The notes beneath the pieces were generated by a model. That model was not told the origin of the DNA. It ran no database searches and worked only from the letters and a program-made list of their open reading frames with translations. This document shows, piece after piece, positions 35,165 through 40,060 of a stretch of DNA of 64,000 bases. The stretch's first letter is position 1; the number at the start of each line of letters is the position of its first letter. Both the position numbers and the translations under genes were made by a program. The stretch covers positions 3,284 to 67,283 of the forward strand of contig JANRKY010000286.1 in assembly GCA_033763135.1 (NCBI GenBank). Direction: 5' to 3'. Source of the DNA: Blastocatellia bacterium (lineage in GTDB: Bacteria; Acidobacteriota; Blastocatellia; RBC074).

Positions 35165-35249
35165 AAATCATCCACGAAGTTACACGAAGAAACGCGAAGG
35201 GAAGCCTCTTCTTCGTGCCTCTTCGTGTGGCGTTGTGGATGATTTTTCA
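35165..35249. repeat. CACGAAG-family palindromic hairpin element (copy 1 of 3).
   Basis: The arms AAATCATCCACGAAGTTACACGAAGAA... and ...CTTCGTGTGGCGTTGTGGATGATTT pair. Shares its core with the copies at 38044 and 39965. Confidence 0.6.
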
Positions 35250-35278
35250 TTCTTTACATGAAATTTGGCGAGCGAAAG

Positions 35279-36580
35279 CTATTCCGCGAAGATCGCGCGT
35301 CGCGGGTCGACGATCAGCCACATGACGAGGCCCAGCGCGAAGACGCCCGCCATCACATAAAAAGGCATCGTCCAGGAGCCGAACTGTTTGACGGCATAGC
35401 CGACGACCAGGGGAGAGAGGGCGCCGCCGAGGTTGCCGATGGTGTTCATAAAGCCGGTGACGACGCCGGCATAGCGCCGGCCGACATCGAGGCAGACGGC
35501 CCAGGCCGCGCTGATCGTCGTGGTTTGGAAGCTGAACGCGACGGCGACGGCGATGGCGGCGAGGGTGCGGTCCTTGATCTGCGGGACGATGAGCAGGACC
35601 AGGGCGCTGGCGCCGTAGCCGGCCGCGCCGATGCCGCAGCGGGCGAGCTTGAGGTTTCCGGTCGTGCGGGCGACCCAGTCGGTCAGCCAGCCGCCGAACC
35701 AGAAGCCGGGGATGCTGAGCGCCCAGGGCAGGGCGGACATCCATTTTGCGGCGTTCCGATCGAACCCGAGAGCCTCGATCATATAAGTCGGCAGCCAGGT
35801 GATGTAGAAATAGAGCCCGTATCCATAGGCGAAATACATCAGGCAGATGAAGAGCATGTTCGAGCTCGCGAAGATCTTCGTCCAGGGGACGGAATGGCTT
35901 TGCGGCGCGGCGGGGCTGTCGGTCTGAATCAGGGCGAGTTCGGCCGCGTTGACGCCGGAATGATCTTCGGGGCGATCGCGAAACCAGCGATGCCAGATCA
36001 GGCACCAGCCCAGGCCGACGAGGCCGAATTCGATGAAGGTCCAGCGCCAGTTCTGATATTCGAGCAGGGTGAAGACGACCGGCGCCGTCAGGGCCGAGCC
36101 GGTGGCGAGGCCGATGAACGAGACGCTCATCGCCCGGCCCTGTTCGCGCCAGGGAAACCAGACCGAGACGGCGCGCGCGATGTTCGGAAAGGCGCCCGCC
36201 TCGCCCGCGCCGAAGAGAAAGCGGAGCGCGAGCAGCGACCAGAAACCCATCGCCGCCCCGGTGAGCATCGTGAAGGCGGACCACCAGAGCACGATTCGCG
36301 TCAGCGCGAGCCGCGCGCCGTATCGATCTCCAAGCCATCCGCTCGGGATTTCGAAGGCGGCATAGGCAAAGGTGAAGGCGCTGAAGACCCAGCCCTTCTG
36401 GTCGGCGGTCAGATGAAACTCGGCGGCGATCGTCGGCATCGCCGCCGAGATGCACAACCGGTCGAGAAACGTGATGACGGCCAGCGCGAAGGCCAGCGAG
36501 AGGACCTTGTGGCGCGCGCGCGACGCGGCGACCGACGGGGAATCCAGGCGCATGCAGGCTCTCCATGGAGCGATGTTCAA
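35279..36580 (-). CDS. MFS transporter (anion:cation symporter-like).
   Basis: 12 predicted transmembrane helices. FLDR motif near TM1. 433 aa. Confidence 0.8.
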   Translation of the reverse strand: MNIAPWRACMRLDSPSVAASRARHKVLSLAFALAVITFLDRLCISAAMPTIAAEFHLTADQKGWVFSAFTFAYAAFEIPSGWLGDRYGARLALTRIVLWWSAFTMLTGAAMGFWSLLALRFLFGAGEAGAFPNIARAVSVWFPWREQGRAMSVSFIGLATGSALTAPVVFTLLEYQNWRWTFIEFGLVGLGWCLIWHRWFRDRPEDHSGVNAAELALIQTDSPAAPQSHSVPWTKIFASSNMLFICLMYFAYGYGLYFYITWLPTYMIEALGFDRNAAKWMSALPWALSIPGFWFGGWLTDWVARTTGNLKLARCGIGAAGYGASALVLLIVPQIKDRTLAAIAVAVAFSFQTTTISAAWAVCLDVGRRYAGVVTGFMNTIGNLGGALSPLVVGYAVKQFGSWTMPFYVMAGVFALGLVMWLIVDPRRAIFAE

Positions 36581-37110
36581 TTTCCCCGGGTGGCGGAGAC
36601 GGCGTATCCCTTCGACTTGTCACCCAGGGCCTTTGAGAGGTTGATGATGGACAGCAGGTCGGTCTGCGCCTGTCGAGCCAGATTCGTATTGAAGACCTTG
36701 CTGTTCTGATGGATCGGATTGTGCGCGAAATCCCAGATCAGTTTCGATAATTGCCGGATCGATTCGTCGAACTTCTGCGGCGTGTCGATTGCGCGGGGGA
36801 CATCTTTCACCTGCGCCATCTCGCCGAGCGCCATCAGCGAGCGCAGCGCCCGGGCGGCCTTGTGGATCGATCGGGCATCCTTGCCCAGCCGCTCCCCCGT
36901 GACCAGACCGGTCTCGTGATCCTGCAGCAGCTTCTGACTGAGGAGTTGAATCTGCTTGAAGTTCTTCTGAAAACTCTGGCGTACATAGGCCCGCTCCCGC
37001 TCGCGGTCCGCCGATCGGGTCTGCGCGGACGACACCGCTGCCGTCGGATGCAGTTCGGATAGGCAGAATAGCAACAGCGCGACGAATGGGAGGTTTCGCA
37101 AAGCGGTCAT
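36577..37110 (-). CDS. Secreted hypothetical protein. Its stop overlaps the start of the MFS gene.
   Basis: Signal-peptide-like MTALRNLPFVALLLFCLSELHPTAAVSSAQ. Lower GC than the neighbours. Confidence 0.4.
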   Translation of the reverse strand: MTALRNLPFVALLLFCLSELHPTAAVSSAQTRSADRERERAYVRQSFQKNFKQIQLLSQKLLQDHETGLVTGERLGKDARSIHKAARALRSLMALGEMAQVKDVPRAIDTPQKFDESIRQLSKLIWDFAHNPIHQNSKVFNTNLARQAQTDLLSIINLSKALGDKSKGYAVSATRGN

Positions 37111-37310
37111 CCGATGATCCTCGTGGCATGAATGGATAGCGTGCAGGACTGCAACGCCGCGAGTGTATAGCATCCTTCGACATGATGTACAGGCGACGCG
37201 ATGTACAGGCCGCGCCGGTGACGATCTTTTGAATATGGCTTGCGTAAGAGCGCATGCGTGTGGGATGATAGCCCGTATCCTTCACCCACATTGAACTTCA
37301 GGAGGCCGCA

Positions 37311-38227: not shown

Positions 38228-38974
38228 TTATTCCGTCGCCGCGAGTCGCTGCCGCAGGATTTCGAAGAGGACGATGCCGGAGGCCACGCTGACGTTGAGC
38301 GAGGTGATGTGTCCGCGCATGGGGATGGAGACGAGGGCGTCGCATTTTTCGCGGACGAGTCGTCGGATGCCCTTGCCTTCGCTTCCCAGCACGATGGCGG
38401 TCGGCACGTTGAAATCGAAGTCTGAATAGGGCGTTTCCGTTCCGCCTTCCACGCCGACGACCCACACGCCGCGTTCCTTGAGGTCTTCGATCAGCCGGAC
38501 GAGATTGGTCACGCGGGCGATGCGCAGATATTCGATCGCGCCGGCGGAGGTCTTGGCGACGGTGTCGGTCAGGCCGGCGGCGCGATGTTCGGGGAGAAAG
38601 ACGCCGTCGACGCCCGCGCCCTCGCAGGTTCGAAGGATCGCGCCCAGATTGTGGGGGTCCTCGATGCCGTCGAGCAGGACGACGAGGGGATTGGGCGAGA
38701 GCGAATCGAGAATCGCCTCGGGATCGATATAGGCGCTGCCGGCATTGAGGGGCGGCGCGAAGGCGATCACGCCCTGGTGGTTGGCGCCGCGGGTCATTTC
38801 GTCCATGGCGCGGCGATCGCGTTTTTCGATGGCGATTCCGGCGCGTCGCGCGATCTCGAGCAGTTCGTTCAATCGGGCGGGGTTGGCGCCCGTGGAGACC
38901 ACGATCCGCGAGATCTTCCGGCGGCGCGCGCGCAATGCTTCGAGCACGGGAAGCAGTCCGTATATCTGATTCAT
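38228..38974 (-). CDS. rlmB: 23S rRNA (guanosine-2'-O)-methyltransferase RlmB (SpoU/TrmH family).
   Basis: SpoU substrate-binding N-domain plus C-terminal SPOUT motifs (LVLGSEGKGI, VSIPM...SLNVSVA). Confidence 0.85.
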   Translation of the reverse strand: MNQIYGLLPVLEALRARRRKISRIVVSTGANPARLNELLEIARRAGIAIEKRDRRAMDEMTRGANHQGVIAFAPPLNAGSAYIDPEAILDSLSPNPLVVLLDGIEDPHNLGAILRTCEGAGVDGVFLPEHRAAGLTDTVAKTSAGAIEYLRIARVTNLVRLIEDLKERGVWVVGVEGGTETPYSDFDFNVPTAIVLGSEGKGIRRLVREKCDALVSIPMRGHITSLNVSVASGIVLFEILRQRLAATE

Positions 38975-39105
38975 TTGATCCTCGATCTGTAGAGTGTGGT
39001 GTGAACGCCGGGAATTGTAGCAGGAATCCGCGTTTGTACGAGGCCGGGCGGCGAAAGAAATTGCTCCGTCCGGGGACCGGCTTGCAATCGCCGCGTCGCG
39101 TGTGG

Positions 39106-39954
39106 ATGATCGAACGCATGAAGAGCATCACGTTGATTCTGTGCCTTTGTCTGTTGCTGGTTGGCTGCGCGTCGACGGGACAGATCGGCGGAAATACGCC
39201 GCAGGGAGCCCGCGGTCGAAGCTACCCGCCGATGGTGGAAGGGACGGCGGAGCGCGAACTGGCCGTGCGCGAAGCCTGGCGGCAGTTCTGCAAGGAGTTC
39301 CGGTTGCCGGAGGCGAAGCCCGATCTGGAGGCGGTTCTGTATACGCCGCGGTCCCTGCCGTTGGAGCTCGCCGGGCGCATTTATCTCAATGCGCGGAGCG
39401 TGGCGTTCGATGAGATGGAGGCGGCGAGCGTGCTTCGGGGCTTCATCGAGCGGGCGCGCGGCGTGCTGACGGGAGAGGGCGCGGCCGCGACGCTCGGCAT
39501 CAAGGATCTCTCTCTGGCGACCTTTACGAAGGATGGCAACTTCTATCGCGCGACCTATCGACAGGTCAACTATCCTTATCCGATCGTCGAGGGATATGGG
39601 GAACTGCGGATCGTCATCGGCAAGGATGGGACGTTGCTGCAGCTCGGAAGCCGCCTGATTCCGGCCTTCGAGCTTCCGGCAAAGCCGGAGATCCAGCCGC
39701 AGGCCGTCGCCGCCGGCCTCGTCGGGCGGGAGTTCAAGTATGCGAGCGTCGCCGGACAGCCAATGAGCTACAAGATCGCCGATCGCGCGGAGATCGCCGT
39801 CGGCGATCCGGTCGTCTATCCGAAGATCGACGGGAAGCGCCTGACGATCCATCTCGCCTTCCCGATTCAGGCGGGCAAGGGCATTACCTGGACCGTCTTC
39901 ATCGACGCGATCACGGGCACGGAGCTGGGCGTGAAACAGAACTTCGCTTCGTGA
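39106..39954 (+). CDS. Lipoprotein of unknown function.
   Basis: Lipobox LLLVGCAS after MIERMKSITLILCLC. The upstream ORF extension overlaps rlmB and is discounted. Confidence 0.5.
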   Translation: MIERMKSITLILCLCLLLVGCASTGQIGGNTPQGARGRSYPPMVEGTAERELAVREAWRQFCKEFRLPEAKPDLEAVLYTPRSLPLELAGRIYLNARSVAFDEMEAASVLRGFIERARGVLTGEGAAATLGIKDLSLATFTKDGNFYRATYRQVNYPYPIVEGYGELRIVIGKDGTLLQLGSRLIPAFELPAKPEIQPQAVAAGLVGREFKYASVAGQPMSYKIADRAEIAVGDPVVYPKIDGKRLTIHLAFPIQAGKGITWTVFIDAITGTELGVKQNFAS

Positions 39955-39964
39955 GAAGCGGGCT

Positions 39965-40060
39965 CTCCACAAAAGAACATCCACGAAGGCACGCGAAGAG
40001 CCACGAAGATAGGACTTATCTTCGTGGCTCTTCGTGTGCCTTCGTGGATGTTCTTTTATG
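39965..40060. repeat. CACGAAG-family palindromic hairpin element (copy 3 of 3). About a 43 bp stem, between convergent genes.
   Basis: CCACAAAAGAACATCCACGAAGGCACGCGAAGAGCCACGAAGATA ... TATCTTCGTGGCTCTTCGTGTGCCTTCGTGGATGTTCTTTTATGG. Confidence 0.65.

Follow-up and report, generated by a model that had tools for sequence, protein, structure and literature searches.

A 64,000-nucleotide stretch of the genome of a Blastocatellia bacterium (here termed 'the window'; positions 3,284 to 67,283 of contig JANRKY010000286.1, assembly GCA_033763135.1) carries three copies of a small palindromic element, E1, E2 and E3, each located between two genes, in which every arm harbors three CACGAAG heptamers, occasionally with one substitution, that follow a period of exactly 10 nucleotides (nt), and in which an A-run and a T-run form the flanks. 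The unit spans approximately 85-100 base pairs (bp) and reads as an A-run, TCATC, three repetitions of CACGAAG-NNN, a loop of 5-11 nt, and then the inverse. The explanation that we favor, with somewhat better than even confidence, is a non-autonomous repeat resembling the repetitive extragenic palindromic sequences (REPs) and bacterial interspersed mosaic elements (BIMEs), transcribed to give stable hairpins at gene 3' ends, in which the phased heptamers are probably bound by a protein. The element departs from described families of REPs and of miniature inverted-repeat transposable elements (MITEs) in its three phased heptamers per arm, and in that their sequence ('the module') is conserved across at least four phyla. 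The first-pass annotation of this DNA, made from the window alone, had recognized the three copies and regarded them as REP/BIME- or MITE-like; what it missed is the main point, namely the conservation across phyla, and that the heptamers, not their pairing, are the most constrained part of the element.

The three copies are real and lie close to where they had been placed, with the start of E2 corrected from 38044 to approximately 38050-38057. A repeat search of the window recovers them as a single 92-nt direct repeat family (35156-35247, 38050-38141 and 39965-40056), in which the second and third members are 79% and 73% identical to the first. Each copy is a near-perfect palindrome, with self-complementary arms that extend over 35 nt in E1 (80% complementary), 36 nt in E2 (94%) and 47 nt in E3 (96%). 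In DNA of about 63% GC content, the motif CACGAAG-N3-CACGAAG, with up to two mismatches, is matched 13 times in the window versus 0.89 expected, while the triple heptamer motif, with up to three mismatches, is matched seven times versus none in 100 shuffles, always within E1-E3. A covariance model run with its filters off over the 64 kilobases (kb) scores the three copies at 78-93 bits and unrelated hairpins, the next in rank, at 33 bits or less; neither this model nor the motif search finds a fourth copy in the remaining 59 kb. The predicted RNA folding energies of E1-E3 range from -39.6 to -90.6 kcal/mol (z-scores of -6.5 to -18.5 relative to shuffled sequences). Compensatory changes between copies, for which the first-pass annotation had proposed to look, are present: a TCA/TGA spacer in E2 corresponds to GCA/TGC in E3, and the flank AAAATCAT to AAAAGAACAT. 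The upper limits of a simple terminator scanner (20 pairs per stem, 8 nt per loop) kept it from calling the full stems of E1-E3; Rfam gives no match at its gathering score anywhere in the window and, at a relaxed threshold, just sub-threshold matches to generic hairpins (microRNAs).

The module extends far beyond this genome. A scan of one genome per GTDB species (596 Gb) with the pattern CACGAAG-N3-CRCGAAG-N3-CRCGAAG located it at 118 loci at least (given below as L-numbers), where about one would be expected by chance according to a calculation made in this analysis. Grouped by record title, the matches listed (to which the counts of loci and arrays given hereafter also refer) comprise about 61 loci from Acidobacteriota (Blastocatellia, Terriglobia, Aminicenantes and Holophagae-like), 28 from Chloroflexota (Caldilineaceae, Anaerolineae, Dehalococcoidia and Chloroflexia), 10 from Planctomycetota, 5 from other members of the Planctomycetes-Verrucomicrobia-Chlamydiae (PVC) group, and 14 from various others; the few matches in Proteobacteria look like chance or pure tandem repeats. 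Several of the carriers are closed long-read chromosomes, and mis-binning is thereby ruled out; closed chromosomes with the module include OZ244843.1, OZ220684.1, OY762429.1, OY760650.2, OY761558.1, OY969903.1 and OZ240232.1. Each genome has its own flank consensus (GTTAAC in Planctomycetota, TTTTAGC in Aminicenantes, AAAATCATC in Blastocatellia), which argues for amplification within genomes; related copies with the last of these flanks are found on four contigs of another Blastocatellia metagenome-assembled genome, or MAG (L019, L025, L075 and L094). A phage or plasmid origin is not indicated: plasmids yielded no match, and 2.9 million viral contigs yielded just five. Hardly any other heptamer is repeated threefold at a 10-nt period in the approximately 0.85 Mb of loci. 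We found no description of the module in Rfam or in the searchable literature, where sequence searches for CACGAAG/CTTCGTG gave just primers and unrelated matches; the kind of element, a small palindromic intergenic repeat that doubles as a terminator, is known.

The count for Acidobacteriota includes 14 loci that are labeled 'uncultured Heliomicrobium sp.' or 'Heliobacteriaceae' and derive from MAGs of binchicken co-assemblies (L001, L002, L005, L037, L047, L053, L054, L056, L064-L067, L073 and L085). In three of the four pairs compared (L042/L047, L063/L066 and L001/L054), such loci display 84-87% nucleotide identity over 1.3-4 kb to Blastocatellia or Acidobacteria loci or to one another, and the labels therefore look wrong.

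Positions that the search pattern did not specify are also conserved. Across 140 arrays, the first heptamer is preceded by T(68%)-Y-A(56%)-T(61%)-C(87%), and these five bases in turn by an A-rich stretch. In partner arms that did not themselves match the search pattern, CTTCGTG recurs at spacings of 10 nt (27 cases), 20 nt (14), 9 nt (6) and 11 nt (8). Pairing was compared in 44-47 hairpins from all phyla, using 2000 permutations. Heptamer positions form Watson-Crick pairs in 68-100% of cases (most in at least 94%). Complementarity is 0.81 versus 0.58 permuted at the foot (positions -3 to -1) and 0.67 versus 0.44 in the outer spacer, values that none of the 2000 permutations reach; in the inner spacer it is 0.37 versus 0.29, and 81 of 2000 reach it. 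RNAalifold predicts three helices of 7-8 bp, with the inner spacer as a 3x3 internal loop. The order of constraint is heptamer sequence and phasing first and outer-stem pairing second, with inner-stem pairing unconstrained. A single orthologous site present in L042, L047 and L051 exhibits the same behavior: the heptamers are unchanged in 17 of 18 cases in L051, where a T-A pair of the outer spacer has also become C-G, a compensatory change, and in all cases in L047. L042 and L047 have identical heptamers and flanks that differ by 3-6%, yet 7 of the 13 loop positions have changed, either because loops are prone to mutation or through overwriting of the element from other copies. In Dehalococcoidia, arms of three CACGAAG units face arms of three CACAAAA units and pair through G.U wobble on one strand only; with that exception, no bias in G.U-type mismatches that would point to selection on RNA was found overall (87 such mismatches on the top and 89 on the bottom strand, alongside 266 of other types).

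This pattern of constraint can also be explained by a binding platform in double-stranded DNA (dsDNA) for a conserved multimeric host protein, with the hairpin and terminator properties being incidental; candidates would be a nucleoid-associated or regulatory factor, an MraZ-like ring reading repeats of a 10-bp period, or DnaA reading the outer TTATCCACG. The exact 10-nt phasing, the invariant heptamers and free spacers, and the non-complementary inner spacer all agree with such a platform, as do the solo arms right upstream of start codons and the long direct tandem arrays of Caldilineaceae (both described below), and conservation across phyla is easier to reconcile with a conserved host factor than with one encoded by the element. 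MraZ boxes, which lie upstream of mraZ or the dcw cluster, comprise three repeats at a 10-bp period that end in GTG[G/T], and the outer end T-Y-A-T-C-CACG agrees at 8 of 9 positions with the DnaA box, TTATCCACA. However, most copies are found at gene 3' ends or in convergent gaps, with divergent (promoter) regions depleted, the outer stem and foot are significantly complementary, and A-run and T-run flanks accompany the palindrome. In addition, sites turn over completely between close relatives, which is unexpected for regulatory sites; no mraZ homologue was found by tblastn in the window or at the 118 listed loci (a weak negative); and the window contains neither dnaA nor a skew inflection. 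We consider a purely host-directed platform unlikely.

A broader proposal, which we regard as possible and put forward tentatively, is that the module serves as the platform of a putative multimeric binding or mobilizing protein common, whether inherited or transferred, to Acidobacteriota, Chloroflexota, Planctomycetota and other PVC bacteria, and thus defines a new REP-like class in which hairpins, solo arms and arrays would be different uses of the same module. Of the 140 arrays, 81 form the 5' arm of a strong hairpin. Crude gene calls place 51 arrays in tandem, 20 in convergent and 5 in divergent gene pairs (76 in all), and the depletion of divergent regions is the pattern of 3'-end elements. 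Solo arms also occur, some of them directly upstream of start codons (L097/L111 and L047:671). In nested palindromes, the CACGAAG module forms an outer layer around ACAGGAT or GATAGAG units, and the inner segments between arms vary in content and in length (from 5 to about 150 nt). The number of units differs at single sites (L039 versus L077, and L078 versus L099).

Head-to-tail arrays reach their largest size (24 units of 49 nt) on a Caldilineaceae chromosome, L045. Such Caldilineaceae arrays (L045 2325-3540 and 5223-5709, L080 3360-3628, L043, L117 and L009) extend for up to 1.2 kb, consist of a 49-nt unit composed of [TTTTATC plus three CACGAAG/CGCGAAG/CGCGGAG units] plus AACACCTTTAACACC, and have no evident associated gene. 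In five Planctomycetota loci (L029, L036, L102, L118 and L017), about 25 nt are common to the left of the hairpin (GACAACTGCAAAAACATGTTAAC) and about 60-70 nt to its right (GTAGTTGCTTTTCATCAGAAGC..GTTTCGACCTGAAGGG...), so that the module there is part of a larger repeat of approximately 200 nt or of a small RNA gene. One Dehalococcoidia chromosome contains a repeat of about 800 bp, with 91% identity (L018 4263-5054 and L057 2370-3157; also L072), in which the asymmetric hairpin (three CACAAAA versus three CACGAAG) is followed after about 30 nt by an open reading frame (ORF) of 131 amino acids (aa) that has no Pfam match, and then by four canonical REP-like hairpins with a GTAG foot (CGTAGGGGCRGMC...); a second hairpin, with three CAAAATG and three CACGAAT units, lies at approximately 5140-5230.

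The relationship between the window copies indicates how they arose. E1 is 88% identical over 82 nt, including the loop AAGAGGMTTCCC, to the reverse complement of E2, versus 79% to E2 read directly; the two share a non-palindromic loop (GGGAAGCCTCTT and GGGAATCCTCTT) and are oriented oppositely. They are therefore dispersed copies of one element. E3 shares these arms, with another loop and a longer outer stem, and the likeness between copies starts at the A-run and stops at the T-run. Syntenic loci from relatives were obtained through the zinc-ribbon protein encoded beside E2 (85% protein identity in L119, 92% in L120-L123, and 63-75% in L129-L131). In L119 and L120-L123, alignment of the coding DNA extends as far as the stop codons, beyond which the intergenic hairpins bear no relation to those of the window, and megablast homology to L119 and L120 breaks exactly at 35280, 38036/38237 and 39958. 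The gap that holds E1 measures 26 nt in L119 and lacks the element; the E2 site is occupied by an ACAGGAT-type hairpin in L120 and by a plain GC-rich bidirectional terminator hairpin in L119; and the E3 site in these relatives has an ACGGAACAGACGGAG hairpin, with a nested repeat of about 170 nt in L119. In L129-L131, no hairpin separates the convergent genes for the zinc-ribbon and SpoU proteins, which abut or overlap. No CACGAAG array, even with four mismatches, is present in 78 kb of orthologous regions from five relatives. The short-read Logan contigs (L120-L123) terminate at the positions of E1 and E3, as expected of repeats. The distribution of the element is patchy in the DNA examined, and the first-pass figure of hundreds of copies in the genome is an extrapolation. 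The orthologous sites without it suggest that E1-E3 were gained recently by dispersal.

The nested repeat of L119 is a separate family, about 150-170 nt long with GAACGCGGATGACGCGGA inverted ends, which occurs twice in an 11-kb locus (2700-2860 and 8540-8730); one copy lies within the stem-loop of the terminator-like hairpin at the site equivalent to E3, a position that suggests that hairpin apices may act as insertion targets.

If E1-E3 were instead ordinary intrinsic terminators of local origin, their likeness would reflect local duplication and slippage, and the matches in other phyla would be convergent. Blastocatellia genomes are indeed rich in intergenic hairpins with varied arms of tandem 7-10-nt units, which suggests a general slippage-driven building of terminator stems, and the window copies lie close together. 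Convergence, however, cannot explain the excess of loci over chance in the cross-species scan, and local origin can account neither for the T-Y-A-T-C foot outside the search pattern nor for the loop common to E1 and E2; the near absence of any other heptamer repeated thrice at the same period also speaks against it. This account is already strongly disfavored, and we regard it as extremely improbable.

The first-pass annotation had suggested a check for target-site duplications: none were seen, by eye only, at E1-E3 and two further loci, without a closely matched empty site, as the relatives' intergenic DNA cannot be aligned at the element sites and hence offers no exact one. No RAYT/Y1 transposase (RAYT, REP-associated tyrosine transposase) or other transposase is encoded in the window genes scanned (28 genes, at approximately 1-47.6 kb) or in the 2-8-kb blocks around the 118 listed loci, and a tblastn search of window and loci for an IS200-type Y1 protein was negative (again a weak negative). 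When the 1576 ORFs that lie within 2 kb of arrays were clustered all against all, just generic families and syntenic orthologues emerged. Formal membership of the REP/RAYT family fails, since the hairpin foot lacks the GT[AG]G guide tetranucleotide, reading T-Y-A-T-C and then CACGAAG, and no RAYT was seen in the DNA scanned; GTGG is found only inside the 3' arm, in the orientation opposite to a REP foot.

A canonical family of REPs, or of paired REPs forming hairpins (REPINs), might still be moved by a single-copy RAYT (TnpA_REP, a Y1 HUH transposase) located elsewhere in the genome. The candidate would be the class 3 TnpA_Y1 group, found mainly in Planctomycetes and Acidobacteria, whose genes are flanked by 'atypical' hairpins that number about 600 copies in Solibacter usitatus (Quentin et al. 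2018, PMC6006769). The phylum range of those genes overlaps that of the module, and the apparent absence of target-site duplications, the extragenic hairpin doublets, the mosaic and nested arrangements and the several hairpin families per genome are all in keeping with it. Against this, the module has neither a 5' GT[AG]G nor a CnGA foot; the orientation of its CCAC...GTGG is the reverse of that in a 'double foot' REP; its arms are 35-47 nt long with internal 10-nt repeats, versus REPs of 20-40 nt; a REP evolves together with its RAYT and is confined to a lineage, in contrast to the conservation of the module across phyla; and the searches above found no Y1 transposase. We could not identify the module with the class 3 hairpins, whose foot is CnGA, and neither the paper nor its supplements contain the string CACGAAG (PMC6006769). 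We judge this explanation to be decidedly improbable.

The arms could alternatively be the terminal inverted repeats (30-35 nt) of a DDE-type MITE, with three subterminal transposase-binding sites as at the ends of Mu and Tn7, and with its autonomous insertion sequence elsewhere. Three binding sites per end are typical of ends that form a transpososome; furthermore, the outer arms are conserved, in contrast to inner segments of variable length and content, and a genome-specific flank consensus is what within-genome amplification of a MITE should leave. Formal membership of this class also fails, for want of a target-site duplication and of a parent element: no direct repeat adjoins E1-E3 or the inspected loci, and no transposase lies between inverted arrays, pairs of which, 1.4-2.9 kb apart, enclose housekeeping genes. 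Solo arms and head-to-tail arrays are common, and the scarcity of matches in viral contigs and their absence from plasmids count against it as well. An ISAzo13-like insertion sequence on a Versatilivoraceae (Terriglobia) chromosome (L034 4088-5395, in a CACGAAG/CACTAAG array region) encodes a 412-aa transposase and has ends GTCTCGCCAAAATAAC...; it was rejected as a parent, as these are its own unrelated ends, it is bordered by a CTAAGG duplication, and it sits inside an array. We consider the MITE explanation very improbable. What stands of the original 'REP/BIME- or MITE-like' description is a genuine dispersed family of the appropriate size class at gene 3' ends; neither a target-site duplication nor a GT[AG]G foot nor a nearby transposase was seen.

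The gene calls bear out the placement of two copies between convergent genes and of one between the genes for a major facilitator superfamily (MFS) transporter and a short-chain dehydrogenase/reductase (SDR). Coordinates are collected in the table below.

Table. Positions of the three element copies, their arms and loops, and the adjacent genes in the window.
Feature	Position	Strand	Remarks
E1	35163-35247	.	Covariance model, 78-79 bits
E1 left arm	35165-35199		CACGAAG at 35173, 35183; CGCGAAG at 35193
E1 loop	~35200-35210		
E1 right arm	35211-35245		CTTCGTG at 35211, 35221; degenerate unit GTTGTG at 35231
E2	38057-38141	.	Covariance model, 90-93 bits
E2 left arm	38058-38093		CACGAAG at 38067, 38077, 38087
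E2 loop	38094-38104		
E2 right arm	38105-38140		CTTCGTG at 38105, 38115; CTGCGTG at 38125
E3	39965-40063	.	Covariance model, 89-92 bits
E3 left arm	39965-40011		CACGAAG at 39982; CGCGAAG at 39992; CACGAAG at 40002
E3 right arm	40017-40063		CTTCGTG at 40020, 40030, 40040; apical loop 5 nt
SDR gene	34421-35149	minus	Confirmed
MFS transporter gene	35279-36580	minus	Confirmed
Zinc-ribbon/CT398 gene	37311-38036	plus	Confirmed
SpoU/rlmB-type methylase gene	38228-38974	minus	Confirmed
Lipoprotein gene	ends 39954		Plausible; lipobox LLVGC
1077-aa gene	40070-43303	minus	Ig-like/ASH/cohesin domains only

Of the gene labels originally assigned, those of the SDR, MFS, zinc-ribbon and rlmB genes hold and that of the lipoprotein gene is plausible, but 'protease' is unsupported for the 1077-aa protein of the table, which shows only Ig-like, ASH and cohesin domains. 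The neighboring genes are ordinary chromosomal ones, and also include subunits of a 2-oxoacid:ferredoxin oxidoreductase and a hypothetical secreted protein. E1 lies in the gap between two minus-strand genes, from the MFS stop codon (35279) to the SDR start codon (35149); it stands 15 nt upstream of the latter, beside a GGAGG ribosome-binding site and inside an apparent operon. E2 separates the convergent zinc-ribbon (stop codon 38036) and SpoU/rlmB genes, and E3 the convergent lipoprotein (stop codon 39954) and Ig-like (stop codon 40070) genes.

The suggestion that all copies double as bidirectional terminators is borne out in part. E2 (flanked by AAAA...TTTTTT) and E3 (AAAAGAAC...GTTCTTTT) display the anatomy of A-run, hairpin and T-run, and E2 is a plausible terminator of the zinc-ribbon gene because a T6 run follows it; E1, however, is probably an intercistronic hairpin rather than a terminator, because it stands 15 nt from the SDR start codon in an apparent operon, with just UUU after the stem on the transcribed strand. 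The rlmB gene has a classical bidirectional intrinsic terminator of its own (AAAAGGCAAATTGCAGCCGGCG/CGCCGGCTGCGATTTGCCTTTT, 38186-38229, again A-run, hairpin and T-run) directly after its stop codon, and the gap between it and the zinc-ribbon gene thus contains two separate hairpins. Within 38935-39100, the lipoprotein gene would begin at 38935 if read as its longest ORF, and would then share 40 nt with the 5' end of rlmB; translation more probably starts about 170 nt further downstream, at the MIERMKSITLIL... methionine, in line with homologues of 278-297 aa in L119 and L120.

In the mechanism that we propose for a REP/BIME-like repeat with protein-bound heptamers, the element, which has been copied to several intergenic sites in this lineage and lies at gene 3' ends, would be transcribed within 3' untranslated regions or intercistronic RNA, and would fold there into a very stable hairpin. 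E2 and E3, with their flanking U-run, would terminate transcription in both directions, while E1, and probably the other copies as well, would have the role known from REP elements, that of shielding upstream mRNA against 3' exonucleases. The 10-nt period would place the three heptamers of each arm on one face of the duplex, as recognition sites for a putative multimeric, sequence-specific protein that mobilizes or maintains the element; such recognition would explain why the heptamers and the T-Y-A-T-C foot are near-invariant across phyla while the spacers, the loop and the inner-stem pairing drift. Arms would gain and lose 10-nt units by slippage.

Several observations weigh against this explanation. 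The trans-acting protein was not found, and no gene family recurs beside the arrays among the matches listed. Termination and stabilization are roles that we infer from anatomy only, and the fold of E1 is stronger on the strand that is not transcribed (-53.5 kcal/mol versus -39.6 on the transcribed strand). Covariation is thin, with double (compensatory) changes in just 5 of 26 pairs, because most stem positions never vary. About 40% of the listed arrays elsewhere are solo arms or tandem arrays, and the hairpin is therefore not obligatory for the module. Finally, the three window copies are clustered within 5 kb.

Hairpins with arms made of tandem units appear to be general in these genomes, and are reminiscent of the cyanobacterial STRR repeats discussed below. 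The window contains a perfect hairpin in which four ACAGGAT units recur about every 10 nt, with 41-nt arms that are 100% complementary (63123-63218); the same unit family is found at the E2 site of L120, in L119 (5619-5718), and as the inner layer of CACGAAG palindromes in L003, L069, L073 and L113, and its RNA form, ACAGGAU, presumably resembles the consensus bound by CsrA. Two adjacent elements (7263-7361 and 7448-7582) are GAATTGA hairpins of a 7-nt period, and further hairpins are composed of GAATGMT (7-nt period, 45454-45541) and of CACAGAG/CACGGAG (8-nt period, 8946-9029). Blastocatellia relatives have additional tandem-unit hairpins of GGAATGC, CATTTGS and CGCAGAG.

REPs and MITEs shape operon expression and genome plasticity; to our knowledge, small palindromic repeats have hardly been studied outside of Proteobacteria, Firmicutes and cyanobacteria, and the phyla that carry the module are hard to culture. 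Its conservation in sequence across phyla, combined with a geometry of three sites on each helical face, speaks for this cis element having a specific protein partner. If found, that partner would explain spread without target-site duplications and could yield a portable DNA- or RNA-binding module. In practical terms, the element can serve as a marker of gene 3' ends, is a cause of contig breaks in short-read assemblies of the carrier phyla, and offers a source of strong candidate terminators for Acidobacteria and Chloroflexota.

Among known systems, the REP/BIME/REPIN families of Proteobacteria, with their RAYT/TnpA_REP transposases, share many features with the element: they are extragenic and palindromic, often form inverted doublets that fold into a long hairpin, occupy 3' ends and convergent gaps, are mosaic and nested with other motifs, lack target-site duplications, and exist as several families per genome; by analogy, a role as terminator or stabilizer of mRNA 3' ends would be expected here as well. 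Unlike them, the module has no GT[AG]G, builds its arms from three heptamers at a 10-nt period, was found with no RAYT nearby and retains its core across phyla, whereas REPs are specific to a genus or species. MITEs such as Correia of Neisseria, ERIC/IRU, RUP and BOX are likewise about 85-150 bp long, intergenic and co-transcribed, with inverted-repeat ends and a variable center; some act as terminators or RNase III substrates, and BOX also has a variable number of internal modules. Unlike MITEs, the module shows no target-site duplication or parent insertion sequence, is also found as solo arms and head-to-tail arrays, and is phased at one helical turn.

The short tandemly repeated repetitive (STRR) heptamer sequences and small dispersed repeats of cyanobacteria, reportedly described by Elhai and colleagues in 2008, are similar in the building of hairpin arms from tandem short units, in nested insertions, in the lack of target-site duplications and in a mobility deduced by comparison of close relatives. 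They differ in that STRRs are contiguous 7-mers of unrelated sequence, restricted, as far as is known, to cyanobacteria and with no cross-phylum conservation reported, whereas the module combines a heptamer with a 3-nt spacer; the GAATTGA hairpins of the window are of the contiguous 7-mer type, as in STRRs. Inverted pairs of DNA uptake sequences and uptake signal sequences (DUS/USS) downstream of genes provide a parallel for a short word that doubles as a terminator while its sequence is itself under selection, in their case through recognition by a protein; those are single, family-specific words with a known receptor, and nothing ties CACGAAG to DNA uptake. The boxes of MraZ and operators of the OmpR/PhoB type also present three repeats at a 10-11-bp period to an oligomeric protein on one face of the helix; those sites are single, promoter-proximal and in one orientation, whereas the CACGAAG module is dispersed as inverted arrays at the ends of genes.

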